Notes: generated by a model not told the origin, from the sequence alone. A stretch of 64,000 bases of DNA from an uncultured cyanobacterium (GCA_963803805.1 CAWDOD010000007.1:128001-192000), one strand, 5' to 3'; positions 2,388 through 63,950 are shown, numbered from the stretch's first letter. Program-made: numbers and translations.

Positions 2388-4691
2388 CTATAATCCTGAA
2401 GCATCGGCATCAACAATATCTAAATTGCTTTGAAATCCATCTTCAGGTATCCATTGAACAGCACCGTTGCGACTTGTCCAATATAACTGAGTTTGTTTTT
2501 TCTTTAGTTCTTCGGTGATTTCCGCTTCCAAAGTACTGGCAGAGGCGATCGCTACTTTAGGTTTTAAAAAACTTAGCCAGGTTTTTCTAAAACTGTCCCC
2601 ATTCCAGATGATCACTTGGGGGGCAGATTCTGGGGTAGAGGTAAGTTTTTGTAAGTACTGATTGATGGCTTCAATTTGAGTATTGAGTTTACTTTGTCCG
2701 AAAATTAACCATGTCTGGTTACGGATCTTGAGTTGCAAGGCGGGGGGATCGGCACTAATTAATTGCATTACTACTGAGGCAACCGCCGTAGGTTGTTTGA
2801 GGGGGAGAGGTTGTGAGGATGTTGAGGAGAGGTTTTTGGTGGCAGCTTCGGTATAAAAGAAGTTTTGGATTGGCATCTGGGCAAATATTTCTTGCCAACC
2901 GCTAGTTAAATCTGGTTGAAATTCTAAAGCAACTGCCCAATCTATTTTATTTATGCCTTCTTGTTGCAGAAAGGGTATGACTGTAAATAAAGCTGTATTA
3001 TCATTGCCGCTATTAATGAGGGTGACTTTACCTTGATCTTGAATTACTAAAACCTGCTCTTCATCTGCTGCTAAGACGGTAACTTGGAATAAGCCTACTT
3101 GTTTTTGGACTATGGGGATGGTGATAATCAAAGCTGCAAATAAGGCCGCTAGCCACCAACGACGCTGAAGCCATTTGCTATAAAAGACGAAAATGATCAC
3201 ACCGTAAAGTAGTAGTACAGAAGCTAAGGAAATGCTCCCTACTGCACGGGTACTTCCTGGTAAGTTGGTGAAAAACTCTACTATGGCAATGAGGAAGTGG
3301 ATTGGGTAATAAAGTAGGGAGGCAGCATAGGTTCCGGCAGTAGGTACAATTAAAGCAATTAAGGCGCTTATCATGCCCCCCAAACTAACTAAGGCAACTA
3401 TTGGGGCAGTAATAATATTAACGGCGATACTATAGGTGGCAACAATGTTGAAGTAATAAAGTTGCAGGGGTAAAACCCAGGGGAAAATTGCCAGGGGAAC
3501 AGTGATGATTGAAGCGATGGTTGGGGGTAGCCAATCTAGCTTTTTCAGGAGGGGAGGGAGGGTGACAATTAAACCCAAGGTAGCTAGGAAGCTTAATTGG
3601 AAACCAATATCAACAATCCAAGTTGGTTGCCATAACAACAGGAATATAGCAGCTAATAATAAGGAACCTAATTGTCTGACTTTTCTTTGGGTTAATAGGG
3701 CGATTAAAGCCCCAATACCCATGATAAAAGCCCGCATTACCGAGGGCTGACATCCCGTCAAACCGACGTAAATAAATAAGGTGGCTAGGGCAATGATAAA
3801 TCGTGTTCGCACCTTGAAAGGGTGAGTTAAACCTAAAACCACCCCCAAGATTAAGGAGACATGGAAGCCAGAAGCAGCTAAGACATGGGCTAATCCGGCT
3901 TTGATAAACAAGTCACTAATATCTTTGGGTAAATCAATTGCCCGTCTCCCCAAAACAATGGAACTAAGTAATAAACCTTCCGGGCTACCTAATGAAGCTA
4001 CTTGCGATTTATTAATACGTTGGCGTAATTGCCACAAACCCCAATTCTTTTCTTGGTTTACTTCCGGGAAAATAACCTGCTTACCATTAAAACCAGCGAA
4101 TATACCTTGACGGGCTAAGTAAGCTTGAAAATCAAATGCCCCTGGATTTAAAGGAGGTTGAGGGGTGTATAAAGTTCCAGTTATGTATAAAATTTGCTGG
4201 GGATGTATCCCCGTACCTTGGAGTAAAGGAACTGTTACATACAATTTCCCTTCTACCCCTCGATTCACTGCCTTCTTACCTTCCTTGCCCTCTACTTCAT
4301 TAACCCTTTGGGCAGCTAATAAAAACTGCGATCGCTGACTGCGAGTAGTACGAGGGGAGGTTAAGACTCTGCCTTGCACTGTAACCAACTGTTCTTTTTG
4401 GGGAACTAATTTGCTAACATCATTATTTGCTGGTTGCGGGATTCTCAGTTGTAAATAAATCACAGCAACAGCCGCAATTAAACCGGCCACAAGCCAAACC
4501 CCTTTTTTGGGGCCAGTTTTCCAAACTTTGGGTACAAGGGCTGTCATGACAATACCTAGTACCACAAACCCTAAACCTGCACCTCCTACAGTTAACCAAG
4601 AGTTAAACTGAGGAGCAAAGTTGATAGCTGCACTGATGAGGAGTCCAGTTATGTAAGCAAGGCAAATAATGGTAGTGCTTTTACGATTCAT
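2388..4691 (-). CDS. comEC: ComEC/Rec2 competence DNA-uptake channel
   Basis: 'NPGAFDFQAYL', 'GLAHVLAASGFHV', 'PSVMRA' and 'GFQLSFLAT' competence-domain motifs; ATG at 4691 preferred as start. Confidence 0.93.
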   Translation of the reverse strand: MNRKSTTIICLAYITGLLISAAINFAPQFNSWLTVGGAGLGFVVLGIVMTALVPKVWKTGPKKGVWLVAGLIAAVAVIYLQLRIPQPANNDVSKLVPQKEQLVTVQGRVLTSPRTTRSQRSQFLLAAQRVNEVEGKEGKKAVNRGVEGKLYVTVPLLQGTGIHPQQILYITGTLYTPQPPLNPGAFDFQAYLARQGIFAGFNGKQVIFPEVNQEKNWGLWQLRQRINKSQVASLGSPEGLLLSSIVLGRRAIDLPKDISDLFIKAGLAHVLAASGFHVSLILGVVLGLTHPFKVRTRFIIALATLFIYVGLTGCQPSVMRAFIMGIGALIALLTQRKVRQLGSLLLAAIFLLLWQPTWIVDIGFQLSFLATLGLIVTLPPLLKKLDWLPPTIASIITVPLAIFPWVLPLQLYYFNIVATYSIAVNIITAPIVALVSLGGMISALIALIVPTAGTYAASLLYYPIHFLIAIVEFFTNLPGSTRAVGSISLASVLLLYGVIIFVFYSKWLQRRWWLAALFAALIITIPIVQKQVGLFQVTVLAADEEQVLVIQDQGKVTLINSGNDNTALFTVIPFLQQEGINKIDWAVALEFQPDLTSGWQEIFAQMPIQNFFYTEAATKNLSSTSSQPLPLKQPTAVASVVMQLISADPPALQLKIRNQTWLIFGQSKLNTQIEAINQYLQKLTSTPESAPQVIIWNGDSFRKTWLSFLKPKVAIASASTLEAEITEELKKKQTQLYWTSRNGAVQWIPEDGFQSNLDIVDADASGL

Positions 4692-4782
4692 TTCATCAAT
4701 GATCAATGTACAGCTTGCTGTTGCCGTTAGGCATCAGTTTTTAATGATGTCTTCGGCAAGGGTAAACCATACAGTGTAAGGC

Positions 4783-4977
4783 TTGCTGTTAACAATTAGT
4801 GGTCAAATTTCACCTGTTATCTTTTACCAAGATCACCCTTTTCCCCTCCCTTCATTAATTTTTATCACCGCTTTTGGAGTAATGGGTTTAAGCTTACCTA
4901 AGTTTGGTCGAGTCAGCAAAATTCTTTATACAACAGTTGAATTTACACTAATTATTCTGGCAGGAAATTGCAGATGA
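4783..4977 (+). pseudogene. relic of the N-terminal membrane region of a cyanobacterial sensor histidine kinase
   Basis: 'HPF...IFITAFGVMGLSLPK...SKILYTTVEFTLIIL' resembles, from recall, the TM N-terminus of NarX-type cyanobacterial kinases; no kinase domain follows. Confidence 0.5.
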
Positions 4978-5126
4978 TTATGTTTCTCAAGCTTTGAAGT
5001 TAGGAGTGAGGGGCTATTTTCTCTAAAGATACTCCTTCTAAGGGATTAGCGATCGCCATTCGTTCTATTCAAAAACGAAAGGAAGCTGACCAAACCTGGA
5101 GAATCAACCTCCCCGCCACCCCAAAA

Positions 5127-16174: not shown

Positions 16175-17575
16175 CTATTTTTTACCAATAAGCCAATAAG
16201 TAAACATTTCCCCTTTACCTTTAACTTTAATAAGTCCTCGTTTTTCAAAAAGATATTGCTCTTGCAAGCATTGATAAATAGTAGTAGTAACTTGAATTCG
16301 GTCAGGAAGTCCTTGAGATTCCATGCGACTAGCTACGTTGACAGTATCCCCCAAAGAATCGTAAATAAATTTGTTTTTACCAATTACTCCTGCTACTACA
16401 GGCCCTGTGTGAATACCAATACGAATTTTTAATTCTTGTCCTAATTGATTAGCTAAATACTTTATGGCAGTTTGCATCTCTAAGGCCAAATTAGCTATAG
16501 CTTCGACGCGATCGCTACGGTGCATAGGAACTCCTCCTACCACCATATAAGCATCACCAATGGTTTTAATTTTTTCTAAGCCGTGGCGATCACAAATAGT
16601 ATCAAATTCTGAGAAAATTACATTAAGCAACTCAACAAGTTTTCGAGGAGATACAGTTGCAGATAACTCGGTAAAACCAACCAAATCAGCGAAAAGAATT
16701 GTCCCATCCGCGAAGCCATCAGCAATATTAGTTTTACCTTCTTTTAATTGTTCAGCAATGGGTTTGGGTAAAATATTTAATAACAATCTTTCTGACTTTT
16801 CTTGTTCAACACGCAAAACAGCTTCAGTTTTTTTACGTTCAGCAATTTCTTGGGAAATACGCTCATACATTTGCTTAAATGCGCTGATAACTTCCCCCAA
16901 TTCATCGTTGCGTTGACAAGAAAGGGAAGAAAATTCTTGTTGAGAGTTTTGGCTAACTGTTTCTCCTAACTTTACTAAGTCATTACGGAGTTGCACAACC
17001 GGAGCAATTACTCTATCTCCTAAAACTATCATCGTAACAAGGGTAACAAAGCCAGAAATTAGTAAAACTAAGCCTGCTATGCGTAGAGTAAAAGCAGACA
17101 AATTGCTCTTAATAAAAGAAGTATCGTAGCGAATAATAACGGTATATTCTTGTTCTTGGTAAGGAGCATACCAAACCATATCATAACGATTACCGTCATT
17201 ACTACGGCGCTTTTTGACCATAGCCTGTTGTAATTCTTGATAGGTTAATTGAGGTGGTTCACCAAATACCTCAACTAATTGTCCTTGTTTATCATAAACA
17301 GCCACTCCTAAAAATAGAGAGTCTTGGGTAAAGTTTTCGAGTAACTTCAGAAAAGTTTCTTTATTCCCATCTACTTGGTAGGAATTGGTAATAGAGGTCA
17401 TTACCGCTTCAGAAATTGCTGATTGTTGGGCAAGTAAATCCTGTTCGCGCTTTTGATAGGAAGGAACAAGAATGATCGCCTCAATCACCACAATACTGGC
17501 AAATATCCAAAGAGAAACACGCCTTGATAACCTTGCTTTAAAAGAATTAAACAGCACTAGCAGCCTGGTTGACAT
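16175..17575 (-). CDS. membrane-bound class III adenylate/guanylate cyclase with periplasmic region and HAMP domain
   Basis: Two TM segments, 'RNDELGEV' HAMP, 'FADLVGFT', 'KTIGDAYM', 'GDTVNVASRME'. Confidence 0.92.
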   Translation of the reverse strand: MSTRLLVLFNSFKARLSRRVSLWIFASIVVIEAIILVPSYQKREQDLLAQQSAISEAVMTSITNSYQVDGNKETFLKLLENFTQDSLFLGVAVYDKQGQLVEVFGEPPQLTYQELQQAMVKKRRSNDGNRYDMVWYAPYQEQEYTVIIRYDTSFIKSNLSAFTLRIAGLVLLISGFVTLVTMIVLGDRVIAPVVQLRNDLVKLGETVSQNSQQEFSSLSCQRNDELGEVISAFKQMYERISQEIAERKKTEAVLRVEQEKSERLLLNILPKPIAEQLKEGKTNIADGFADGTILFADLVGFTELSATVSPRKLVELLNVIFSEFDTICDRHGLEKIKTIGDAYMVVGGVPMHRSDRVEAIANLALEMQTAIKYLANQLGQELKIRIGIHTGPVVAGVIGKNKFIYDSLGDTVNVASRMESQGLPDRIQVTTTIYQCLQEQYLFEKRGLIKVKGKGEMFTYWLIGKK

Positions 17576-18165
17576 GACCTTAATCCTTGATGTTTCGTGG
17601 GCAAGTTTCCAAGCAGTTAGATGGAGGGTGTCACCCCTCATTATAGATTAACTAACACTGGGGCTTGCAAATAAGGATTTAGCAACAGATCCCTATAGTC
17701 TTAATTTCCTATTTATTGGCGATTACATCCGGATATTTTAGTTATAGGGTGTGTTCTTTTAGATAATTCTTCATCTTGAGCTAAACTTTTTGATAGGAAC
17801 GTACTATTATCATGAATAATATGCTGCTAATAAATTTCTATTTGCCAATTTTAAAAATAGCAGCCGGTTTATTATTACTGGTGAAGGTGATTTTGTGACA
17901 AATGGTACGTTAAGTACTGAATAAATAGTTTAGGTAGCTTCTTTATGGTTTTCACCATGACAAAAGCAGCGATCGCGCAATTTAGTTTTTAACAAAAGTG
18001 AGGATTTTCTCCACAAGTCTATATTTTTCTTTTTTATTAGAGATGTCATAAGTATAGCTAAAAGGGATAGTTTTGCCATTTATCAATTTAATCATAACTC
18101 TATGACTATTTTTAGCAGTGATCCTAGAATATAACTCTACTTCAGCCATTTTAATATCTTGAAGG

Positions 18166-21100
18166 CTATGTTGTTCTTAATTGTTGCTGACAACGTTCGA
18201 GATAAATTTGTGTCACTTTATCCCCAGGATTTTTGACTAAACAGTCTCTAAACGTAGCAGCAGCTTCAGAAAACTTTTTAGCATTATAAAGAAAAATTCC
18301 CCTTTCAAAAGCAGATTTAGTAACTAGTTTTGCTTCTTTTATTTCTAAAGGTTCAGCATCAAATACTTCATAGACAGTAACAGCTTCTGTTTTACCTTTA
18401 ACTGTTACTTTATCTATAATACGAATGCTATAGTGATGGTGATTATTTAAAGCTTCAAAAGTATGCTGGGTAATCAATAAGGTTACTTGATAATCTTTAG
18501 TTAAAGCTTCTATACGAGATGCTAAATTAACTGCGTCACTAATCACCGTTCCTTCCATACGATTAGTTCCCCCCACAGTACCTAGCATTAATAAACCTGT
18601 ATTAATCCCAATGCCAATTTTGATAGGAGGGCGCTTGCCACCGCCACGAGTTTTGTTATATTCAGCGATAGTTTGTAACATAGCAATACCGGCTTTCACC
18701 GCATCATCAGCCGAACCGTCAAATAAGGCCATAATGGCATCGCCAATAAACTTATCAATGAAGCCATTATTATCAGCAATTACAGGTTCCATACGGCTGA
18801 GAAAAGCATTGATAAATCGAAAATTATCTTGAGGATTCATTATTTCTGAAAGAGAAGTAAAGGAACGAAGATCAGAAAATAAAACCGACATTTTCCTTTG
18901 TACGGCATCCCCTAACTTGACATCAGCGATACTTTTTTTATTTAATAATTGGAGAAATTGGCGAGGTACAAACCTTTCATTAGCTTTGTTTAATTGAGAG
19001 AGTTCTGCTGTAAATCTTTCTCTTTCTGCTTCAGCTTTCTTGCGTTCTGTGATATCTTGAAAAGCAGAAATTCCGTAAGCAATTTGTCCTGTTTCATCAA
19101 AAATGGGCGTACCCCAAGCTTCTAAGGGTATGGCTTTATTACCGCGGCGAACTTCAATATTATCGACGGTTTTGCTTTCACCTTTCAAAGCCCGTCTACT
19201 AGGTAAATTTTCTTGAGGATATAGCTCATCAGTACCAGTAGTATAAATTTTATAAGCATTGCTTTGCCGAGGGTTACTCTCATTAGGAACTACCCCTTGA
19301 CCTAATAACTCTTTAGCCCGATGATTACTATAATAAGGATTTCCTTTAGTATCAAATACTGCTACCCCCACAGGCATAGCTTCTAGGAATTGAGTTAAAC
19401 GGCTTTCGCTTTCTCTTACTTCTGAATAAAGTTTGGCATTGGTAATAGAAATTGCGGCTTGGGAAGATAAGAGTTTAATAATTTCTAAGCGATTAGCTGT
19501 AAAAGCTCCTGTGGTTAGATTATTTTCCAAATAAATAATACTAACTAATCTACTTTGATTAATTAAAGGAACACAAAGAATTGATTGGGGTTGATAATCT
19601 CTAATATAGGCATCATGAGTGAATTTCCCTTCGTAAGCAGGATCGTTTAAGACTAAATTTTCATGGGTACGGGCAACATAGTTGATAATTGAAACAGGAA
19701 CTTCTTGGGTTGTATTTTTAATTAAAACTGATTGCCATCTTTGCACTTTAGCAGACTCTATTGTCCCTACAGCTTCAATAAAAAGTTGACCTTTATTTTG
19801 TAAAATAAGAACCCCAACCTCTGCTCCAGCATTTTCTAGTAACATAGTCATAAGATTGGCAAGAAGCTTATCTAAAATAATTTCTCCAGCAATAGCTTGA
19901 GAGGATTTAATAACAGTTGCCAAATCTAAATACTGCCCATATTGATTACCGGTTTTTGAGTTGGTAAACTGAGTTGATTCTAGGGAATAATTTAGAGGTG
20001 TATAATTGCCTTGAAAAAGCTGAGGATATTGATTCTCTAGCTGATTTGCCTTAGCTTTTGCTCCCCAGCGAAGATAACAATAATGAGCATCTAATAAATA
20101 GGCACGGGCGATTTTCTTCTTTCCTCTACTTAAATAGAATTTCGCTGCCAACTCATTAGCAAGGGCTTCTTCATTAACATACTGAGTCTCTCTAGCTAAG
20201 GCGATCGCATTATCATAACTATCCATCGCTTCGGTAAAGTCACCAAGAAAACGATGTTTTTCAGCTTCAATGAGATAAAATTTATGTAAAAAATTAACCG
20301 GAGCGCAGTCAGCTAAAAATTTAATTACTTGCTGGTGATTTGCTATCTGATCAAGGACTTTTTCTTGTTCTTTTCCATCGCTAGCATTGGCAATAGCTAA
20401 CTTGATCAAAGCTGCATAAAAGTGAAAAATTGGTGTTAGCAAAGAGCCAACAGCTACATCTAAATCCTGTGTCGCAGCTTCTATATTATCCAGGGCTTTA
20501 GGTAGTTCTCCAAAGAGATAACAAAGTATACTGGTTTGTAAGTTAACTAAATAAACTGAACTTCTACTATTGACTTTGATATACCAGGGGAACCAAACCT
20601 CAACATCATAAGCTTCTCCAACCAGATAGCAAGGATTTTCTGCGTTTCCTGTTAAGTTAAGTGCTACTTGATAAAAAATAGAAATAGTTTGCCAATCTGA
20701 TTGTTGTTTGAGTTGGCTAATCATGTCGCGATAGGCAACTATTTCTGCTTGGAATTTAACTAAATCTTGTCCTAGAAAATAGTAATGTAAAGCGTAACTA
20801 CTTGCTCCGTGAGCAGCATACTCTATATCCCCAATTTCTAAACCTATTTGATAGGCATCCACAGAAAAATGTAAAGTTTCTCTTACAGAAGCACGAAAAT
20901 GTTTAACTAAGCTATTAACGATGTGAAAAGTTTTGGCTTGGACTTCTTTTGTCTCTAAGAAATCTAATAGATCTAAAGCAAGTTCTCCAAAGCGGTAACC
21001 ATTATCTACATCGTGAAAAATCGCACAAAGTATGCTGCCATAATAAGCATAAGCAGGGGCCGAAAGTGAAGTATTACCATACTCTAAAGAAAGCTTAACT

Positions 21101-53704: not shown

Positions 53705-54716
53705 ACGTGAGTTCGACGGAGGAAAAAGAGAGAAAAGAAAAGCATCAGAGGTATGCTGAAAATGAATCTTAATCAGAATCTGATGCTATGTCCAATATTG
53801 TATCTCGTCTCGATATCACCCAAATATTCTGTCAGGTAGATGACTTTTATCAAAGGTTTGAGAGGCATTGGCAACAACAGCCAATGTTAACAGCAACTTG
53901 TGGAGAGCGTCTATGTCGCTCCCGCCTAAGCCTAAGCGAAGTGATGACCATTGTCATTGCCTTTCATGGTTCGGGATTTCGCACTTTTAAAGAATTTTAC
54001 ACTCTACAAGTCTTGCCTTACTGGAAGAAAGCTTTTCCCAACTTGGTCAGTTACACTCGATTCGTAGAGCTAATGCCGTGGAGCTTAATGCTTCTTTGCT
54101 GTTTTCTACATACTCTTCGAGGAGAAATTACCGGCATCAGCTTTATTGATTCTACCCCCATTGAGGTCTGCCACCCGAATCGCTCCAAAAGCCACCGTGT
54201 TTTTGAAGGTTTGGTAGGTTGGGGCAAAAATGCTATGGGATGGCATTATGGCTTCAAGCTACATCTAATTATTAATGACAAAGGTGAGCTGCTTGCTTTC
54301 AAACTTACAGAGGGTAATACTGATGACCGTAACCCTGTGCCAGATATGGCTGATGGCTTGATTGGTAAGTTATTTGGCGACCGAGGTTATATTTCTCAGG
54401 ATTTGTTTGAGAAACTCTATGAACAAAGACTACAACTGATTACACACCGCAAGAAAAATATGAAGCCGAAGTTAATGCGTCTTCAGGATAAGATTCTCCT
54501 ACGTAAGCGTTCTCTGATTGAGACTGTTAATGACCAGCTCAAGAATATCTGTCAGATTCAGCATTCAAGACACCGTAGCGTTTGGAATTTTTTGGTTAAT
54601 CTCTTAGCTGGTCTAATCGCTTATACTTTCTTGCCCAAAAAGCCTTCCCTTGACCTTGACCCCAAAGGCCTAGCTGAACTTCCTTCTGCTGTTTTTTAAC
54701 TTCATCGAACTCACGT
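53705..54716 (+). mobile_element. complete IS982-family insertion sequence (1012 bp)
   Basis: TIR ACGTGAGTTCGA/TCGAACTCACGT; 8-bp target duplication TAAAATCA (53697-53704, 54717-54724). Confidence 0.95.
53788..54699 (+). CDS. IS982-family DDE transposase
   Basis: 'IFCQVDDF', 'FIDSTPI', 'GWHYGFKLH', 'GDRGYIS', 'RSLIETVN'. Confidence 0.93.
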   Translation: MSNIVSRLDITQIFCQVDDFYQRFERHWQQQPMLTATCGERLCRSRLSLSEVMTIVIAFHGSGFRTFKEFYTLQVLPYWKKAFPNLVSYTRFVELMPWSLMLLCCFLHTLRGEITGISFIDSTPIEVCHPNRSKSHRVFEGLVGWGKNAMGWHYGFKLHLIINDKGELLAFKLTEGNTDDRNPVPDMADGLIGKLFGDRGYISQDLFEKLYEQRLQLITHRKKNMKPKLMRLQDKILLRKRSLIETVNDQLKNICQIQHSRHRSVWNFLVNLLAGLIAYTFLPKKPSLDLDPKGLAELPSAVF

Positions 54717-54895: not shown

Positions 54896-55933
54896 ATGCT
54901 GATAGCAAAGTCAACTAGTAAGACTGTTTTAATACTGAGTATATTAATACTTACCGCTTGTGCAGGAGAAGCAAATCAAGGGACTAAATCTGAGTTAGAA
55001 AAATCTTTCCAAGAATTGTGTCTCCAAAAAGCCAACTTATCAACCGAAGTAAGTAAGACTATAGATGCACTACTAGAAGAAGCCGGGACAACTGATTGTG
55101 AAGCAGCTAACGCAGAGTTGTTAAGTCGCACACAGCTTAGCCTCTTTGATAAGGAAATTACAGATATTAGCCCAATAGCTGGGTTTACCAATCTAGAGGG
55201 ACTTATCTTAGACAAAAATCAGGTCAAGGATATTACTCCTTTAACCAAACTGACTAACTTAGATTCTCTTACCCTCGCCAGCAACCAAATCGTAGATATT
55301 ACCCCTCTAGCTGGACTGACTAATCTAGAAGGCCTTGCTCTTAACAATAACCAAATCGTAGATGTTACTCCTCTAGCTGGACTCACCAATCTAGAGATTC
55401 TTACTCTCAACGATAACCAAATCAACGATCTTACCCCTCTAATCGGACTCACAAATCTAGAAGACATTACCCTAGACAACAACCAAATCAGTGATGTTGC
55501 TTCTCTAGCTGGACTGACTAATCTAGACGGCCTTACTCTATATAACAACCAAATTACTGATGTTACTCCTCTAGCTAAACTTACAAAATTACAGTACCTT
55601 GACCTCCACAAAAACCAAATTACTGATATTACCCCGATAGCCAAACTTACACAACTAGACTCCCTTAGCCTGGACAACAACCAAATTGTCGATGTTACTC
55701 CTTTAGCTGGACTTACAAATTTACAGTACCTTACCCTCACGGACAACCAAATCGCTGATGTTACCTCAATAGCGAGACTCACCAATTTAGACTCCCTTTA
55801 CCTCAGCGACAATCAAATCACAACAGTCGATTCTCTATCAGGATTAACAAAGCTAAGTTGGCTTGCTCTTGAGGGAAATCCTCTTACACAAGAAACTTGC
55901 CCAGTAGATGAATCTATTTGTCATTTTGATTGA
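54896..55933 (+). CDS. internalin-like leucine-rich-repeat lipoprotein
   Basis: Lipobox LTAC, Cys cap 'FQELC...TTDC', 22-aa LRRs 'LTNLxxLxLxxNQIxDxTPL'. Confidence 0.92.
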   Translation: MLIAKSTSKTVLILSILILTACAGEANQGTKSELEKSFQELCLQKANLSTEVSKTIDALLEEAGTTDCEAANAELLSRTQLSLFDKEITDISPIAGFTNLEGLILDKNQVKDITPLTKLTNLDSLTLASNQIVDITPLAGLTNLEGLALNNNQIVDVTPLAGLTNLEILTLNDNQINDLTPLIGLTNLEDITLDNNQISDVASLAGLTNLDGLTLYNNQITDVTPLAKLTKLQYLDLHKNQITDITPIAKLTQLDSLSLDNNQIVDVTPLAGLTNLQYLTLTDNQIADVTSIARLTNLDSLYLSDNQITTVDSLSGLTKLSWLALEGNPLTQETCPVDESICHFD

Positions 55934-56007: not shown

Positions 56008-57396
56008 ATGGCAAAATTAACTAACAATCCCGTTTTAATACTAGGTACATTAATACTCACCGCTTGGGAAACTCAGGCAACTTATGCGGTTGGACTTAGT
56101 TTAGAAAGCTCTTTTCAGGAGTGGTGTTTGCAAAAAGATGAACTATCAACAGCAGCAAGGAAGACTGTAGATGCACTACTAGAAGAAGCTGGGACAACTG
56201 ATTGTGAAGCGGCTAACAACGAATTATCTCGCCGTAGCGAACTCTTCCTTAATCTCCAAGAAATCACAGATGTTGCCCCCATAGCGGGACTCATCAATCT
56301 AGAGTACCTTTCTTTAGCAGGCAACAAAATCACTGATGTTACACCTTTAGCCAAACTCACCAACCTCTCATCACTTGACCTAAGCGATAACCAAATTACA
56401 GATGCTACTCCTTTAGCGATACTCACGAATCTTAAGGGTCTTGGCCTCAGCGATAACCAAATTAGTGATCTCAGTTTTTTAATACCACTTACCAAGCTGA
56501 GTGGTATTAACCTTGAGCGTAACCAAATTAGTGATCTCACTTCTTTGAGTGGACTAATTAATTTAGAGGGGCTTGATTTAAGGGATAATCAAATCTCAGA
56601 TATTAATTCTTTGAGGGGGCTGACTAAACTAGGATTCCTCAACCTCGATAACAACCAAATAACTGATATCACTTCTCTGGGTGGGCTAACTAATTTAGAG
56701 ATACTTTCCCTGCGCTTCAACGAAATAACTGAGATTAATTCTCTGAGCGGACTGAATAATCTAGAGATGCTTTCCCTGGGCTTTAATGAAATAACTGAGA
56801 TTAATTCTCTGAGCGGACTGACTAATCTAAAGTCTCTTGACATAGACAAAAATCAAATCGTAGATGTTACTCCTTTAAGAGGACTGAATGATTTAGAGTC
56901 CCTTACTCTAAGCGAGCATAAAATCACTGGTGTTGTTCCTGATTTGAGTTCTCTAGCGGCACTTCCTAATCTGCGATCGCTTGACCTAACTGGTAGCCAA
57001 ATTAACGATCTTACTACTCTGTCTGGACTCACTAACTTGAAATCTCTTTACCTCTGGGAAAACCAAATCGCTGATGTTACCCCTCTGTCTGGACTCACTA
57101 ATTTAACAAGCCTTTACCTGGGCAACAACCAAATCGCTGATGTTACCCCTCTGTCTAGACTCACTAATTTAAGAATACTTTTCCTGAACAACAACCAAAT
57201 CACTGATGTTACCCCTCTGTCTGGACTCACTAACTTAGAATTTCTTTATCTCTACAATAACCAAATCACAACGGTTAGTTCTCTATCACCATTAACTAAC
57301 TTAACCAAACTCCATCTCAATGAAAACCCCCTCCTACAGGAAACTTGCCCAGTAGAGCAATCAGCTTGTACTTTTGGCTCAATCTCAGCAGAATAA
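56008..57396 (+). CDS. internalin-like leucine-rich-repeat protein, paralogue of the upstream gene
   Basis: Same cap ('DALLEEAGTTDCEAAN') and C-terminal 'ETCPV..S.C.F'; more LRRs. Confidence 0.92.
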   Translation: MAKLTNNPVLILGTLILTAWETQATYAVGLSLESSFQEWCLQKDELSTAARKTVDALLEEAGTTDCEAANNELSRRSELFLNLQEITDVAPIAGLINLEYLSLAGNKITDVTPLAKLTNLSSLDLSDNQITDATPLAILTNLKGLGLSDNQISDLSFLIPLTKLSGINLERNQISDLTSLSGLINLEGLDLRDNQISDINSLRGLTKLGFLNLDNNQITDITSLGGLTNLEILSLRFNEITEINSLSGLNNLEMLSLGFNEITEINSLSGLTNLKSLDIDKNQIVDVTPLRGLNDLESLTLSEHKITGVVPDLSSLAALPNLRSLDLTGSQINDLTTLSGLTNLKSLYLWENQIADVTPLSGLTNLTSLYLGNNQIADVTPLSRLTNLRILFLNNNQITDVTPLSGLTNLEFLYLYNNQITTVSSLSPLTNLTKLHLNENPLLQETCPVEQSACTFGSISAE

Positions 57397-57460: not shown

Positions 57461-57720
57461 CCTTCTAAACAACGGTGATAAGGAAAATTCTCCTAAGCAA
57501 TCAGCGTTTCTTGTTGTCATCACACTATCGCTTAATTCAAAGGCCGCATCATGAGCTTTTCCTAGCATTTGATAGGTTTCTTGACGAAACTTTCTCAATC
57601 GTTCATATTTCATGGTAGGGAGATTTATGTATTTAGATTCCTCTGAATCATTTTCTCCCTCTTTTCCCTTTTTTCTCTACTGTTTTCCCTTCTCTTCCTT
57701 TTCGTTAGTCTAAACTACAG
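57461..57720 (-). mobile_element. truncated transposon left end with transposase N-terminus (IS701/IS4-like cyanobacterial family, from recall)
   Basis: 'LRKFRQETYQMLGKAHDAAFELSDSV...FSLSPLFRR' then abrupt loss of similarity; purine-rich leader; putative end CTGTAGTTTAGACTAA. Confidence 0.7.
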
Positions 57721-58943
57721 TTATCAGTAATCCTCTGCATTGCTTCTTCTACATTTTCCCGACTATTAAACGCAGAGATGCGGAAATAACCTTCCCCCGC
57801 AGCCCCAAACCCTGAACCAGGAGTCCCTACTACATAGCAAGTTTGCAACAACTTATCAAAGAAGTCCCAACTAGAAAGTCCTTGGGGAGTTTTGAGCCAA
57901 ATATAAGGTGCGTGTACACCACCATAAACACTAATTCCGGCTGCGGTTAGTTTTTCGCGGATGATTTTGGCATTTTCTAAATAGAAGCTAATCAACTCTT
58001 TGATTTGTTGTTGTCCTGCTTCGGAATAAACTGCTTCTGCCCCCCTTTGGATAATGTAGGATACGCCATTAAATTTGGTTGCTTGACGGCGATTCCACAG
58101 CTTCCATAACTCCACATCAGAACCGTCAGAGGCTTTGGCAGTTAAACCTTTGGGTACAACAGTAAAGGCACAGCGAGTTCCTGTGAAACCAGCATTTTTA
58201 GAAAAAGAACGAAATTCGATCGCACAATCCCTTGCCCCGATAATTTCGTATATAGAATGGGGAATTTCTGGATCGGTTATGTAAGCTTCGTAAGCGGCAT
58301 CAAAAAGAATTAAAGAGTTATTGCTTTTGGCATAATCTACCCAAGCTTTGAGGTTTTCTTTAGAAGCCACAACTCCTGTGGGATTGTTGGGGAAACAAAG
58401 GTAAATTAAATCAACTTTTTGCTTGGGAATTTCCGCCGTAAAATCATTCTCAGCAGTGATAGGTAAATAAACTAAACCCTCGTATTCCCCCTGCTCGTTA
58501 GCAGCACCTGTATGTCCTGCCATGACGTTAGTATCAACATAAACCGGATAAACAGGGTCTGTAACAGCGATGGTATTATCATTACCGAAGATATCAAGGA
58601 TGTTGCCTGTATCACACTTAGCACCATCAGAAATAAAGATTTCCGAAGCATCAACTTCACAACCCCGCGCCTGGAAGTCAGTGGCAGCAATTTTCTCCCT
58701 TAACCAAAGATAGCCTTGTTCTGGGCCATACCCTTGAAAAGTTTCGCGATCGCCCATTTCCTGAGTTGCTGCAATGATTGCACTCCGGCAAGCTTCTGGT
58801 AAAGGTTCTGTGACATCACCAATACCAAGTTTAATTAAAGGTGCATCAGGATGAGCTTCAGCAAAGTTGCTAACCCGTCGTCCAATTTCCGGGAAAAGGT
58901 AGCCAGCTTTAAGCTTGAGGTAATTATCGTTAATAGTTGTCAT
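57705..58943 (-). CDS. dapL: LL-diaminopimelate aminotransferase
   Basis: 'AGYLFPEI', 'LGIGDVT', 'GYGPEQG', '[13 protein letters not shown]'. Confidence 0.96.
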
Positions 58944-59213
58944 AATTAATTTCTACACACGCCATAAAACAGCTTATACCATAAGATCTGGTGGTCACGC
59001 TTTCCCACTTACCGTAACCTACATTATTTGCCAGAAATTGAAAAAATGCCTTTTTCGACGTAAATACCTATGCAAAATGCAAGATTAAGTTTTGTGACAA
59101 TTGCCTAGAAGTTGCGTAAAACATAGCAATCTCACCAGAGAACCAGATGAAGGTGAGTAATTCACTTGAATAACCTATGAATAACCTAGAAGTTCTTACA
59201 TATTCTGGCCAGG

Positions 59214-59852
59214 GTGATGAATGAACTAGATGAGTCCTTGAAAGAGCTAGCTAAAAAAGCGCAGGGTTATCCTGTAGGGAGCAAAGAGCGCAATCGAGTT
59301 TTGCATCAGTTATGGAACAAAATACAGCAAAATTCCCATAAACTTTGCCGTCCTTTCCGAGGGCAGTTTATCAACTATCAACAAATTTATGTTGAAGCAG
59401 TGTATAAGTTGCTAGCTTATGTTTGTCAAAATATAGATCAGTATGATCCTGACAAAGGAGAACTTTTACAATGGGCAGCTAATCATAAACGTATGAAAGG
59501 CTTTTTTGAGAAAGCTTATCGGGAGATGAAGCCGATTGGAAATGCTAATTTGCCGAGGAAAACTTTACAAGATTTAGCAGAATTAAAAGAATCTAGTAAT
59601 AAGCCGGGGAAACTAGCTTCTGAGCAAATTATTGCTTATGTAGCTGAAGATCCTGATGGAATATTTAAGAGTAAATCTCTAAATGGCAATGAGGAGGCCA
59701 ACTTTAAGATGATTTTTACTAAATATCATCAAGGCTACTCGTTTCAAGAAATTGCCCAACAATTGCAGGAAAAATATTCCACTGTACATAGTTTTTATCA
59801 CCGCAACTTGAGTTATTTTGCGGAAACAATTAAAGCATATTTAAGTAATTAG
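59214..59852 (+). CDS. divergent sigma-70 family (ECF-like) factor
   Basis: Region-2-like 'YVEAV..L..YVCQNIDQYDPDKG.LLQW' and region-4 HTH 'GYSFQEIAQQLQEKYSTVHSFYHR'. Confidence 0.75.
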   Translation: MMNELDESLKELAKKAQGYPVGSKERNRVLHQLWNKIQQNSHKLCRPFRGQFINYQQIYVEAVYKLLAYVCQNIDQYDPDKGELLQWAANHKRMKGFFEKAYREMKPIGNANLPRKTLQDLAELKESSNKPGKLASEQIIAYVAEDPDGIFKSKSLNGNEEANFKMIFTKYHQGYSFQEIAQQLQEKYSTVHSFYHRNLSYFAETIKAYLSN

Positions 59853-59867
59853 TTAGGAGGTTGAAAA

Positions 59868-60818
59868 ATGCTAAGAGAATCGAATTCTTCTGGTGTAATT
59901 ATATCTTTAGGTGCAAAAGCACATCAGCTTGCTGAGGCATTTTCTCAGCAACAAGCTCAAAGTCACAAGACAAAACAAGTTTATCTTAATACTTTAGCAG
60001 TTTATGCTGTCAATATTTATCTAGAAGGGATGGGGATTACTACTGATTTGAAGTCTAGCTATAGCTGGAATGCTGTTATGCAAACTATGGCTAACGTAGC
60101 AGATTTAGTAATACCGGAACGAGGTAGATTGGAATGTCGTTACTTGTTACCTGACCAAGAATCTTGTTATGTTCCCTCAGAGGTTTGGCTAGAGAGAACT
60201 GGTTATGTTGTAGTTAAGCTAGACCAAGATTTAAGTGAGGCGAGGTTATTAGGTTTTACCATTAAAGTAGAAGAAGAATATTTAGCCCTTACAAACTTAT
60301 TACCATTAGAAGATTTATTAGATAGACTAATTGGAAAACAAGAGAAATTGCAGTCATCTCCTATTCAGCTTAGTAACTGGCTTGATAATCTTTTTACTAA
60401 AGGCTGGCAATCTTTACAAGAATACTTACAGAGTCAAAATTATGAGCCTGGTTTCAATTTTAGAAGCCCTGCTTTAATCACTTCTAAGCCAAAAACAGGA
60501 AAAACCAACTTAGCCGAAGGAATCAAATTAATCAAATTTGAAAAAGCAGAGCAACAAGTTGCTTTAGTGGTGGGTGCAGACTTAAAAACTCAGTTAGAAT
60601 CTACTATTTCAGTTAAGGTTTTTCCTTTGGGTAGCAGTACTTATCTTCCCCAAGATTTACAATTACTAATTTTAAGTGAAACGGGGGAACCAGTAGTACA
60701 AACTAAAGCGAAAGCCACCAAACAAATTGAAGTAGAGTTTAGTGGAGAAAAGGGAGAACAATTTAGGGTTAAAGTTGTTTTGGATGATTTTAGTATTACT
60801 GAAACATTTTCAATTTAA
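59868..60818 (+). CDS. DUF1822-like protein
   Basis: 'QVYLNTLAVYAV', 'VADL', 'GRLECR', 'GYVVV', 'LLGF', C-terminal 'GEQFRVKV..SITETF'; AGGAGG RBS. Confidence 0.85.
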   Translation: MLRESNSSGVIISLGAKAHQLAEAFSQQQAQSHKTKQVYLNTLAVYAVNIYLEGMGITTDLKSSYSWNAVMQTMANVADLVIPERGRLECRYLLPDQESCYVPSEVWLERTGYVVVKLDQDLSEARLLGFTIKVEEEYLALTNLLPLEDLLDRLIGKQEKLQSSPIQLSNWLDNLFTKGWQSLQEYLQSQNYEPGFNFRSPALITSKPKTGKTNLAEGIKLIKFEKAEQQVALVVGADLKTQLESTISVKVFPLGSSTYLPQDLQLLILSETGEPVVQTKAKATKQIEVEFSGEKGEQFRVKVVLDDFSITETFSI

Positions 60819-60851
60819 TTCTAGGTTGCAAGTATTAGGGTAAAGTGCATT

Positions 60852-63198
60852 ATGGGTAGATTAGTAATTTTAAAGTTAGATGGCAATTTGCATTCAATAG
60901 GTTTTCGAGTAACCTTAGAAGTAGAATCAAGAAGGTCATCGTTTTGGGGACTTACAAGGAAATTTACCTGCTAATCCAGAATTAGTAGAAAAGTTACAGG
61001 AGCATTGGTTAGAAAATTATCGTAAAATTGGTTCCCCGGCACGTATTAAAGTTAAGAAAGTTACTTATAGTGGTTCTGTTAATAAGTTGGTTGAAGAGTC
61101 AGGTAAACAACTTAAAAAAAGTTTGAACCAATGGCTTGCTTCACCGGAATTCAGTGAAATCAACAACTATTTACGCACAGTATTAAGCCCCAGTGAAGTA
61201 ATTCGTTTCTTAATTCGTACTGATGATACAAATGTTTTGAAACTTCCCTGGGAAGAGTGGCAATTCTTTGTAGATTATCCCAAAGCAGAAGTCGGCTACG
61301 GGGGAACTAAGTTTAGTAAACCACAACAGGTTGTTACAAAAAAAAAGCCAGCTAAGGTTCGTATCTTGGCAATCTTGGGACATAGTGAAGGTATTAACCT
61401 CGAAGCAGATGAACGGCTGTTGCGGAGTTTGCCAGGGGCTGATGAACCTGTATTTTTAGTACAACCGAAACGTAAAGATATTAATGATAGTTTGTGGGAA
61501 CAACCTTGGGATATTATATTTTTTGCCGGACATAGTATTACCGAAAATGACGAGGGAAAGATTTATCTTAATGATGAGGAAAGTTTAACCATTGATGAAT
61601 TGTGGCACGCTTTAAGAAAAGCAGTCAACAATGGCTTAAAATTAGCTATATTCAACTCCTGCGACGGTTTAGGCTTAGCTAAACGCCTAGATGACATTAA
61701 CATTCCGCAAATGATTGTTATGCGGGAGTTAGTACCAGACAAAGTTGCCCAACAATTTCTTAAATACTTCCTCAGCGCCTTTTCTGGTGGCAAACCCTTT
61801 TATTTAGCAGCAAGGGAAGCGAGGGAACAGTTGCATTGGTTAGAAGAGGAGTTTCCTTGTGCTACTTGGTTGCCAGTGATTTTTCAAAATGTCGGTGAAG
61901 CCGCTTTGACTTGGGAAGAGTTAAAGGGAGCTAAGAAGCCTAAATCAGCTTTGCAGGATCTTTCTTGGCGACGGGGTTTGCAAATGGTATTGCTAACCAG
62001 TTTGGTGGTTACTAGTTGTGTGGTGGGGTTGCGATCGCAGTCTGTTTTTAAGCCATTGGAGTTGAAAGCGTTTGATCACCTGATGCAGCAAAGGAAAGAT
62101 CAAGGGTCTGATCCTCGTATTTTAGTTGTAGAAATAACGGATGCAGATCAAAGGCTTCCGGAACAAAAAGGTAAAAAGCAAGGTTCCTCTATTTCTGACT
62201 TTGCACTAGAGAAACTTTTAGACAAGCTAGAATCATATCAACCACGAGTAATAGGTTTAACGCTATTTCGCGATCCTCCTGACTACGCACCAGAATTACC
62301 AGAACTTAAAGAACGTTTTCAAAAAAGCAAAGTCCTTTACGGAATTTGCAATGTAGATGAATTAGGAGATGGAGAAAGAGGATTTTTGCCTCCTCCAACC
62401 TTACCAGAAAAGCGTCTAGGTTTTACTAATGGTATAGGTGATGACGACAATGTAATCCGCCGCTCTATCCTGTTTATGGATACACCTGCAACGTCAGTTT
62501 GCCCAACATCTTTTTCTATTACCCTTAAGCTAGTAGAAGCATATTTGGAACAAGAAAGTATTCCGCATCCAGTAATTAAGCTGCCGAAACACTCTAACGA
62601 TAGTTTGTATATAGGCAATGTGCTAATTCCTAATTTACGCTACAATCCAGGAATTTATGGAAATAGCGATGATGATAATTGGGGATATAAATCAATTATT
62701 AATTATCGGTCTTATCGTTCTGTTTTGGAAATAGCAGACAAAGTTAGCTTAGAAGATATTTTAAGAGACAAAGTTATCTCGTCAAAAATAAAAAACAAGA
62801 TAATTTTGATCGGTTCAAATAAGAGCTTACCTGATAACAAACACCAGACCCCTTATAACCAGAAAATACCTGGTGTAATTCTTCAAGCACAAATGGTTAG
62901 TCAGCTTCTCAGTAGGGTTCTTGATGACCGACCTCTAATTGTTTTCTGGCCTCCCTGGCTGAATTTTATCTGGATTGCTGCTTGGTCTTTTTTAGGAGGT
63001 ATTTTAACCTGGTGTTTACGTTCCCAGTTTAATTTGTTAGTAGCAGTAATTATATCTTTAGCTTCTTTATATGGGGCTTGTTTGTATTTATTAACTCAAG
63101 GTTTTTGGATTCCCTTAATTCCTTCAGTTTTGACTTTATTTGGTACTGCTGCTGTAGTGCTTTCAATCATCAATTTGAAAAAATCTCGTTCAATATGA
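60852..63198 (+). CDS. CHAT (caspase-like) protease - TM - CHASE2 sensor - 3 TM protein; +1 frame break at ~60925-60971
   Basis: 'MGRLVILKLDG' start at 60852; 'LPWE', 'FFAGHS' (His 61531), 'FNSCDG' (Cys 61660); CHASE2 'LELKAFD..DPRILVVEI', 'PGVILQAQMVSQL'. Confidence 0.88.
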
Positions 63199-63950
63199 TA
63201 TTCAACAATTTGTTTGGCAAGTTTTTAAGCTTTCATTTAGTAGTTACCTTTCTACTAATCAACACAAATATTGTAGAAGCAAGAGTGTTAAAACCTCAAT
63301 TAACTAAACCTTCCTATGAATTGAATTGGTGGGAACATTTTCTTCTTACTGAGGATACAGGACAAGGAACATCAAAAGGACATCCTATAAATACAGGTAC
63401 TCGTACTCCTTGTGATTATAAACGATATCTAGAACCTTTAGTACTAATAGAACCACACTCTAAGACAACCGAATGGCGTTGGGGTTTCACTCGCAATGAA
63501 TACCCGACTTTTTGGGCTTACATTCCTTATCAAGCAGACATGATCAAGAAGATCACCTTTTCTTTGCGGGATGAACAAGAGAACATCATCTATGAAACAA
63601 ACCTAAACAAACCAGAAACCACAGGCATCATTAGCTTCACTCTGCCTAACACTGCAAAGCTACTTCCTAAAGGAGAATGGTATAAATGGTATTTATTTGT
63701 CGAAGCCAGTTGTAAACCTCAACAAACTGCTGAAATGTATGAAACTAGTGCTTGGATACAAAGAAGCGATGACCCTCAAATTCCCGAAACTGAGTTTGTT
63801 TACGATCGCCTGACAGACATCGCTAACCTTGCAGAAAGTCCCCAGAAGCCACAGCAATGGCAAACATTACTTGAATCACTAGGGTTAGACGAATATACTA
63901 ACGAACCAATTATTGTAGACTGCTGTCAACCACTAGAGGAACAAGAGTGA
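63195..63950 (+). CDS. secreted DUF928-like protein
   Basis: ATG overlaps the upstream TGA (ATGA); signal peptide; 'GTR..C', 'T..EYPTFWAYIPY', 'YKWY', 'W..LLESLGL'. Confidence 0.82.
   Translation: MIFNNLFGKFLSFHLVVTFLLINTNIVEARVLKPQLTKPSYELNWWEHFLLTEDTGQGTSKGHPINTGTRTPCDYKRYLEPLVLIEPHSKTTEWRWGFTRNEYPTFWAYIPYQADMIKKITFSLRDEQENIIYETNLNKPETTGIISFTLPNTAKLLPKGEWYKWYLFVEASCKPQQTAEMYETSAWIQRSDDPQIPETEFVYDRLTDIANLAESPQKPQQWQTLLESLGLDEYTNEPIIVDCCQPLEEQE

Follow-up and report, generated by a model that had tools for sequence, protein, structure and literature searches.

Positions 59214 to 63950 (+ strand) of a 64,000-nt stretch of DNA from an uncultured cyanobacterium (GCA_963803805.1, CAWDOD010000007.1:128001-192000; the whole stretch is called the window below) carry one copy of a widespread cyanobacterial signalling cassette. 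Its four genes encode a divergent sigma-70/ECF (extracytoplasmic function)-like protein, a DUF1822 protein, a receptor in which a caspase-like CHAT protease precedes a CHASE2 sensor, and a secreted DUF928 protein. The cassette is a further member of a catalogued system, and the idea of protease-dependent activation has been in print since 2021 (Kaur, Iyer, Burroughs, Aravind, eLife 2021; PMC8195603). Relative to the passages of that paper considered here, three features are new: natural fusions of the sigma-like protein with DUF1822, a pairing of DUF928 with CHASE2 receptors of any output, and a four-box element shared by upstream regions. The receptor gene is frameshifted, and the cassette in this assembly is either just inactivated or mis-assembled at one base. 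The features are listed here in order of position.

59090-59101 (box A), 59112-59123 (box B), 59138-59143 (box C) and 59146-59153 (box D), + strand: four-box promoter-like element before gene 1; box D is degenerate here
59214-59852, + strand: gene 1, divergent sigma-70/ECF-like protein of 212 amino acids (aa); start GTG at 59214 or ATG at 59217
59868-60818, + strand: gene 2, DUF1822 protein of 316 aa (Pfam E = 4e-65)
60852-60924, + strand: first 24 codons of gene 3, start of an EACC2-like N-terminal domain, in the frame of the ATG and matching the N-termini of intact orthologues
60925-60926, + strand: frameshift site of gene 3, one A more than in genome G081 of the same genus (pairwise DNA alignment)
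60927-63198, + strand: remainder of gene 3, with the rest of the N-terminal domain, CHAT/caspase, a transmembrane (TM) segment, CHASE2 and a C-terminal TM block (Pfam and hydropathy)
61531-61533 (His) and 61660-61662 (Cys), + strand: catalytic codons of gene 3
61975-62034 (TM segment), ~62011-63003 (CHASE2) and ~62938-63180 (C-terminal TM block), + strand: parts of gene 3 (Pfam, hydropathy)
63195-63950, + strand: gene 4, secreted DUF928 protein, 251 aa long from the ATG overlapping the gene 3 stop codon (Pfam E = 2e-28)

A preliminary description of this DNA had reported four co-oriented genes with short gaps. These are borne out: 15 nt separate genes 1 and 2, 33 nt separate genes 2 and 3 (counted to the ATG at 60852), and genes 3 and 4 share an ATGA overlap (63195-63198). 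That description had the four genes and their gaps right and overlooked the frameshift in gene 3; of its interpretation, the gene order, the sigma/DUF1822 pairing, the DUF928-CHASE2 pairing and the catalytic dyad gained support, and the statement that the module lacked a functional description did not. Compared with the congener G081, the ratios of non-synonymous to synonymous substitution rates (dN/dS) of genes 1 to 4 are 0.12, 0.14, 0.14 and 0.34, and the cassette is under purifying selection. A simple scan for sigma-70 promoters and terminators within the operon gave nothing above chance.

Conservation of the cassette

A co-occurrence survey, set beforehand as a test, found the gene order conserved across cyanobacterial orders. 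It covered 80 cyanobacterial loci, taken from 572 confirmed matches as those most like this DUF1822 protein (the query was made from three DUF1822 paralogues). The loci were scored with hidden Markov models (HMMs) built from the paralogues of this genome. Among the 70 loci with enough upstream sequence, 68 have a sigma-like gene upstream of DUF1822. A caspase gene lies downstream of DUF1822 in 61 of 70 loci, and in 55 of 70 it includes CHASE2. DUF928 directly follows the receptor gene in 42 of 52 loci, and a canonical TPR-CHAT or two-partner-secretion (TPS)/ShlB gene is found in the flank in 30 of 43. Many filamentous and colonial cyanobacteria have members of the DUF1822, DUF928 and EACC2 families, and several copies in one genome are common.

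The genome of the window has 8 matches for DUF1822, 11 for CHASE2, 10 for DUF928 and 39 for CHAT. All seven DUF1822 genes examined here are preceded by a co-directional open reading frame (ORF) of 211-322 aa; five of these ORFs align well and two show only 17-20% identity. Two more cassettes contain all four families, one on contig C3 and one on contig C9, the latter with genes for a 2492-aa TPS protein and a TPR-CHAT protein between DUF1822 and the receptor. Two cassettes of the genome have a caspase-TPR gene in place of caspase-CHASE2, and one (locus L014) has the sigma-like gene and DUF1822 alone. Just past the window lie two convergent genes, one for Uma2 and one for a TPR-CHAT protein of 888 aa, and also a gene for a ShlB-type transporter; the same arrangement is found in the congener.

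The sigma-like protein and DUF1822

Gene 1 is taken here as a very divergent sigma-70/ECF-like protein which probably works like a sigma factor. By itself it scores below the curated sigma thresholds (see below); in its family, 29 of 74 members match Sigma70_r4_2 at E <= 0.01 (best 3.4e-7), with Sigma70_r2 matched by four and Sigma70_ECF by two of the 74. Hydropathy analysis finds no TM segment in gene 1.

Gene 2 matches DUF1822 (PF08852) with 220.7 bits, above the gathering score. In an alignment of 85 sequences a conserved N-terminal part (residues 1 to ~135) precedes a variable stretch (~155-165), which is followed by a conserved helix motif ending in the invariant Arg199, a linker of variable length (200-215) and a conserved C-terminal part. 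One paralogue carries a HEAT insertion inside the 200-215 linker. A single linker spanning residues 155-215 had been suggested; the two variable stretches do fall in this range, but the conserved helix motif between them means that it is not one long linker. A PDB sequence search with DUF1822 gave no significant relative (best E 0.79).

The sigma-like protein and DUF1822 form a fixed pair, both by adjacency (68 of 70 loci) and by natural fusion. Two sigma-DUF1822 fusion proteins of 692 and 696 aa come from different sources (three contigs) and are 59% identical over their full length. The sigma-family profile matches their first ~340 residues (E = 1e-24 and 2.5e-21) and DUF1822 the rest (E = 3e-77 and 4e-75). 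The lead came from ESM Atlas feature matches at 0.84 with a homologue and was then confirmed with HMMs. Two diverged sequences have retained the fusion, which speaks for a joint physical action of the sigma-like protein and DUF1822 and names two proteins for binding work. Other DUF1822 fusions carry the sensor modules NACHT or GAF, which suggests that DUF1822 is the entry point of sensory input.

The receptor encoded by gene 3

The CHASE2 domain (PF05226) of gene 3 is matched with E = 3e-52 (178 bits, above the gathering score) and the CHAT domain with E = 3e-11 (43.6 bits against a cut-off of 24). The His/Cys dyad described earlier is intact: the motifs FAGHS and FNSCDG are present, and both residues are unchanged in all 59 aligned family members. 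Hydropathy places the protease domain in the cytoplasm by predicted topology. The topology proposed in the preliminary description agrees with one TM segment after the protease, followed by CHASE2 with no output domain after it; the hydrophobic block at the C-terminus is long enough for the three terminal TM segments claimed, of which two pass the hydropathy threshold and the third is recognized by eye.

Contrary to what had been stated, the protease is not at the N-terminus. A domain of ~165-175 aa stands before CHAT, is conserved in 46 aligned proteins and is common to paralogues with CHASE2 or TPR C-termini. From the description given in PMC8195603 we infer that this region is EACC2. A PDB sequence search with it gave no significant relative.

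DUF928 accompanies CHASE2 receptors

Gene 4 matches DUF928 (PF06051) with E = 2e-28 (100 bits, above the gathering score). Its product begins with a hydrophobic signal-like N-terminus, in agreement with the secretion predicted before, and has two conserved cysteines. DUF928 is a genomic partner of CHASE2 receptors whatever their output type. In the genome of the window DUF928 adjoins 5 of 11 CHASE2 genes (three CHAT-CHASE2 receptors and two adenylate cyclases). Across 21 other cyanobacterial genomes a CHASE2 gene lies within 3 kb of 77 of the 141 listed DUF928 genes, for which chance would give ~1%, and DUF928 lies within 3 kb of 73 of the 140 listed CHASE2 domains; these pairing counts are lower bounds, as 158 CHASE2 and 17 DUF928 matches fall outside the listing. 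Of 81 genomes sampled from the phylum, 22 have DUF928, and all 22 belong to the class of the window. The suggestion that DUF928 is a ligand or co-receptor of CHASE2 fits this general pairing, which offers a candidate partner for this sensor domain.

Where DUF928 is not beside a caspase receptor, it adjoins prolyl-oligopeptidase (Peptidase_S9) genes in two loci of this genome (L017, 1262-3184 on the - strand by DUF928 at 4279-5061; L019, DUF928 at 16256-16891 and 17131-17943, followed by 17962-19899). The CHASE2-cyclase gene of locus L024 is preceded by a FecR-domain gene in place of DUF928.

The frameshift in gene 3

Gene 3 had been read as a single open frame. The frame of its ATG (60852) ends at a stop codon at 60972-60974, and CHAT and CHASE2 are encoded in another frame, which does not open before 60925 and has 757 codons, with TTG at 61087 as its first start codon. 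The shift falls 73 nt after the ATG. Paralogues and orthologues have the N-terminal motif of the short frame and the continuation of the long frame. G081 contains the same locus at 85% DNA identity with gene 3 as one ORF of 781 aa, beginning 33 nt after DUF1822, and the pairwise alignment reveals exactly one surplus A in the window at 60925/60926 (GAATC here, GATC in the congener). The 756 codons past the shift are open, 87% identical to the congener at the protein level and have a dN/dS of 0.14. A single lesion in an otherwise undamaged gene with such a dN/dS is therefore either a very recent insertion or an assembly error.

We lean slightly towards an assembly error, with gene 3 intact in the organism, over a genuine and very recent pseudogene. 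This is in accordance with the lesion being the only one, with the single base that separates GAATC from the GATC of the congener, and with the nature of the assembly, which resembles a metagenome-assembled genome in 11 contigs; in the sole public run that contains this stretch, a DNA run, the contigs have a depth of ~5, and no RNA run is listed for it. The contigs of that run leave 60783-61004 uncovered, however, and so confirm neither reading, and other CHAT genes of the genome are also split, which may mean real decay in an expanded family. Two such genes appear broken, with the match spread over neighbouring frames or interrupted by an internal stop codon (C7:100478-101351 and C2:1359663-1360188); broken CHAT-family members or local assembly errors are not rare in this genome. 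The contigs of the public run break on either side of 60783-61004, which may reflect low depth or strain variation.

A four-box element upstream of sigma genes

An element common to the upstream regions was found by dyad search, alignment and a position weight matrix (PWM) on 74 regions upstream of sigma genes. Boxes A and B form a bipartite motif with starts 22 nt apart, which is present with up to 3 mismatches before 33 of the 74 genes, mostly ~85-125 nt ahead of the start codon. Boxes C and D follow box B by ~14 nt and ~25 nt, and the whole element measures ~65-75 nt. The copy in the window scores 22.6 bits with a PWM trained without this genome. The same PWM finds nine sites of at least 22 bits in the genome, compared with 1, 0, 0 and 1 in four simulated genomes. 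These sites precede the sigma gene of the window, the paralogous C6 sigma gene, a divergent TPR gene beside the latter, the adjoining TPR-CHAT gene (83 nt before its start), a GT4 glycosyltransferase gene, a gene for a 2513-aa RTX protein, an Na/H-exchanger operon ending in a TPS gene and a DUF3172 gene; one site is doubtful. Both motif-bearing sigma genes of the genome are included, and four of the nine sites are at cassette loci. In the congener, too, the sigma and TPR-CHAT genes are preceded by these sites. The further copies in this genome (G000) are located as follows.

C7:195549 (-), C6:217792 (-)/217869 (+), C10:160992 (+), C7:207557 (+), C2:906111 (-) and C9:144339 (-): element copies at TPR-CHAT, TPR, GT4, RTX and DUF3172 genes and sigma operons

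In the 80 survey loci (1.3 Mb) there are 79 sites of at least 20 bits: 36 before sigma genes, which are circular because the PWM was derived from them, six before TPS genes, 31 before other ORFs and six with no ORF in range. The 31 other ORFs include subtilase-DUF4114, RTX, lectin and VWA proteins, PAS-AraC and histidine-kinase regulators and a small conserved protein of 85 aa. Boxes C and D, which are outside the PWM, are found after 19 of 32 sigma sites and after 11 of 36 of the others, compared with 44 of 5000 random segments; the C/D pattern was defined post hoc. At sigma loci of the long form, a gap of only 3-4 nt separates box A from box B, with B, C and D unchanged. A search for a second, distinct motif at sigma loci without the A-B arrangement turned up only this kind of variant arrangement, which keeps box B, and an NtcA-type site for box A was rejected by eye, the palindromic half being absent. 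Boxes C and D lie in the presumed leader and could be an operator or an RNA element; an Rfam search of the leader region returned zero matches.

The spacing of the element and its AAC-like and CGT-like cores resemble what we take to be the pattern of ECF promoters. The element appears to be a promoter serving a small regulon with the cassette at its centre, and would most simply be read by the cassette's own sigma; the shared element thereby predicts output genes. Alternatively, it might be no promoter of this sigma at all, but a promoter of the housekeeping type joined to the binding site of some other factor, such as a response regulator, that co-regulates the cassette and exoprotein genes. 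Such an arrangement would account for a similar half-site one helical turn upstream of box A, for the possibility of reading boxes A and B as weak -35/-10 hexamers with 17-nt spacing, and for the movement of box A in the long-form loci while B, C and D stay in place; moreover, several Nostocales loci have divergently oriented genes for PAS-AraC, response-regulator-AraC and histidine-kinase proteins. We nevertheless regard it as rather unlikely. The sites cluster near sigma cassettes, with 43 non-sigma sites in the 1.3 Mb of flanks compared with nine (at least 22 bits) in the 5.3-Mb genome, of which four are at cassettes; auto-regulation is usual for ECF sigmas; and the simple sigma-70 consensus scan gives no site at the element.

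A second copy of the element stands ahead of a gene for a small conserved protein of ~80-85 aa, which is transcribed divergently from the sigma gene, in loci of Coleofasciculaceae, Aerosakkonema and Argonema (L027 8716-8970 (-), L034 8701-8949 (-), L026, L028, L031, L032, L038 and L040); the two examples that were scanned have no Pfam match.

Relation to known systems

The preliminary description had stated that the module lacks a functional description. This does not hold, as an EACC2-caspase-CHASE2 protein with ECF sigma and DUF1822 neighbours and protease-dependent activation is covered in PMC8195603. The passages of that paper considered here describe a constant N-terminal EACC2 domain followed by a caspase and variable C-termini, among which CHASE2 with TM helices is named, and genes next to it that encode an ECF-type sigma and a DUF1822 protein, the latter labelled there as a TPR protein; they propose stimulus-induced activation of the autopeptidase with a last step via the sigma factor. 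All these features of the EACC2-caspase neighbourhoods are found in the window: the constant N-terminal domain, the caspase, the CHASE2 C-terminus and both neighbours. Differences are the frameshift in this copy and the sigma-DUF1822 fusion and shared upstream element, which the same passages do not mention; DUF928 has 0 occurrences in the main text. A caspase-CHASE2 fusion was listed for Trichodesmium in 2010 (PMC2853523, in the part considered), and within the literature searched the CHASE2-DUF928 pairing appears for a single Nostoc punctiforme neighbourhood (PMC5587647, likewise in part). Our literature search found no experimental study of the module or of the DUF1822, DUF928 and EACC2 families. 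Because the module is already catalogued and this copy is frameshifted, the window itself is of lower value.

In the type III-E CRISPR Craspase the TPR-CHAT protease Csx29 reportedly cleaves Csx30, which holds a sigma factor. As in the cassette, a protease of the CHAT family is coupled genetically to a sigma via an intermediate protein, and proteolysis is the proposed switch. Craspase has Cas7-11/gRAMP, Csx29, Csx30 and Csx31 genes together, whereas a Pfam scan found no Cas families among the scanned ORFs of the 16-kb locus around the cassette (L009), the upstream ORFs of the window lying outside that scan. The trigger there is a target RNA, in contrast to the periplasmic CHASE2/DUF928 sensor proposed here. 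We know of no relationship between DUF1822 and Csx30.

Sigma-E and RseA, with the proteases DegS and RseP, are the classical case of an ECF sigma released from a membrane anti-sigma by regulated proteolysis. Common to that system and, as proposed here, to the cassette are an envelope signal that reaches sigma activity through proteolysis of a partner, and a self-regulating sigma operon. In contrast to RseA, DUF1822 is soluble and its search results include no anti-sigma family, and in place of a site-1/site-2 protease the receptor itself carries a cytoplasmic domain of the caspase type. Known CHASE2 receptors (PF05226) have cyclase, histidine-kinase or Ser/Thr-kinase outputs (Zhulin et al. 2003, cited in PMC8195603). 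The cassette receptor shares their periplasmic sensor domain and membrane topology, and this genome also has CHASE2-cyclase, CHASE2-kinase and CHASE2-histidine-kinase genes; its cytoplasmic module differs in standing N-terminal to the sensor and in being a protease.

Proposed mechanism and alternatives

In the mechanism that we favour, DUF1822 would be a dedicated partner that holds or controls the divergent ECF-like sigma. The periplasmic CHASE2 domain and the secreted DUF928 would form the sensor, and a signal there would activate the cytoplasmic caspase-like CHAT protease. The protease may then cut itself, releasing its N-terminal domain, or it may cut DUF1822, where a candidate site lies after the invariant Arg199, just ahead of the variable linker. 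The cut would alter the DUF1822-sigma complex and free or activate the sigma, which would read the four-box promoter before its own operon and neighbouring genes. Putative targets are the convergent TPR-CHAT gene past the window and, elsewhere, genes for TPS, subtilase and RTX-type exoproteins. We infer the binding, the cleavage, the reader of the element and the signal, and for the chain as a whole we see slightly less than an even chance.

A number of results weigh against this mechanism. Gene 1 itself misses every curated threshold (Sigma70_r4_2, 19.4 bits against 25.7; the NCBIfam sigma70-ECF model TIGR02937, 17.2 against 42.9), and although 6 of the 11 PDB matches of its family profile are ECF sigmas (SigH, SigK, SigW, SigE), their E-values are just 0.09-0.5. 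DUF1822 had been put forward as a candidate anti-sigma, a proposal that found no backing in either feature tested: hydropathy detects no TM segment that could serve as a membrane anchor, and no anti-sigma family is among the Pfam (E <= 0.1), NCBIfam and PDB-sequence results. The sigma-DUF1822 fusion is rare, being seen in two protein clusters only; 400 sampled genomes of the class (which gave only read-through matches of separate genes) and a metagenome scan contained no further case. A homotypic relationship of the N-terminal domain of gene 3 with DUF1822 or the sigma was rejected (hhalign probability 0.2%). The A-B arrangement is absent at 35 of 69 sigma loci, about half, and the upstream half of the element looks like a direct repeat of the type bound by OmpR-family regulators, so that this sigma may not be its reader. 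The 80 loci were picked by similarity to this DUF1822, and the survey counts therefore hold for this subfamily only; in 9 of 70 loci the sigma and DUF1822 genes have no caspase gene with them, and the protease is therefore not obligatory. Finally, gene 3 is frameshifted in this copy.

The loci without a caspase gene, together with L014 of this genome, are also what would be expected if there were no proteolytic gating. In that case the sigma and DUF1822 would be self-contained, and CHAT-CHASE2 and DUF928 would be members of the regulon with other substrates, for example in the nearby TPR-CHAT/TPS pathway; the four genes do stand behind one upstream element with no internal promoter that stands out, and TPR-CHAT, TPS and ShlB genes recur by the cassette. 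We think this improbable, since the caspase directly follows DUF1822 in 61 of 70 loci whatever its C-terminus (CHASE2 or TPR in this genome), which is typical of a functional partner and not of cargo, and since the protease domain is cytoplasmic by topology whereas TPS substrates are exported. A role in conflict or cell death, proposed in section 9 of PMC8195603 as far as that section was considered, would make the cassette a counter-invader or suicide system, in which sensor-triggered autoproteolysis of the EACC2-caspase leads to a sigma response and the caspase is perhaps also a death effector. Proteins of the CHAT (39 matches), STAND and TPR types abound in the genome, DUF1822 is found fused to a NACHT NTPase, and Uma2 nuclease-like genes, with a weak match to PADLOC PDC-S03, adjoin several copies. 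On the other hand, the PADLOC models have no match to the four cassette proteins at E <= 0.001, a periplasmic sensor built from CHASE2 and a secreted partner suits an extracellular cue better than an intracellular invader, and the genes that bear the element are mostly exoproteins and regulators with no obvious toxins; the presence of several paralogous cassettes per genome under purifying selection would suit ordinary signalling equally. We consider a conflict role quite unlikely.

Should the favoured mechanism of receptor, caspase cut and freed sigma be true, a caspase-type enzyme would do the work of the site-1/site-2 proteases of classical ECF pathways, and the cassette would be a non-CRISPR parallel to the link between Craspase and sigma. 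It is doubtful, if conceivable, that the cassette represents a new trans-envelope pathway in the full sense, leading from the receptor caspase through a cut in DUF1822 or in itself to a private four-box regulon of secreted proteins, with DUF928 as the missing periplasmic co-receptor of all CHASE2 output classes.

Neighbouring genes

Uma2-family genes (putative restriction endonuclease fold) lie beside four DUF1822 cassettes of the genome (L009 8999-9784 (-), L010 10583-11167 (-), L012 8594-9421 (-) and L015 5376-6059 (-)); the one by the cassette described here is that with the weak PDC-S03 match. Upstream of the cassette the window, read by eye, encodes two paralogous leucine-rich-repeat proteins (54896-55933 and 56008-57396, both + strand), whose N-termini are similar and signal-like. 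Immediately before this pair is an ORF of 303 aa (53788-54699, + strand) that by eye is transposase-like. Between the leucine-rich-repeat genes and the cassette lies an aminotransferase-like ORF (57705-58943, - strand), also assigned by eye.

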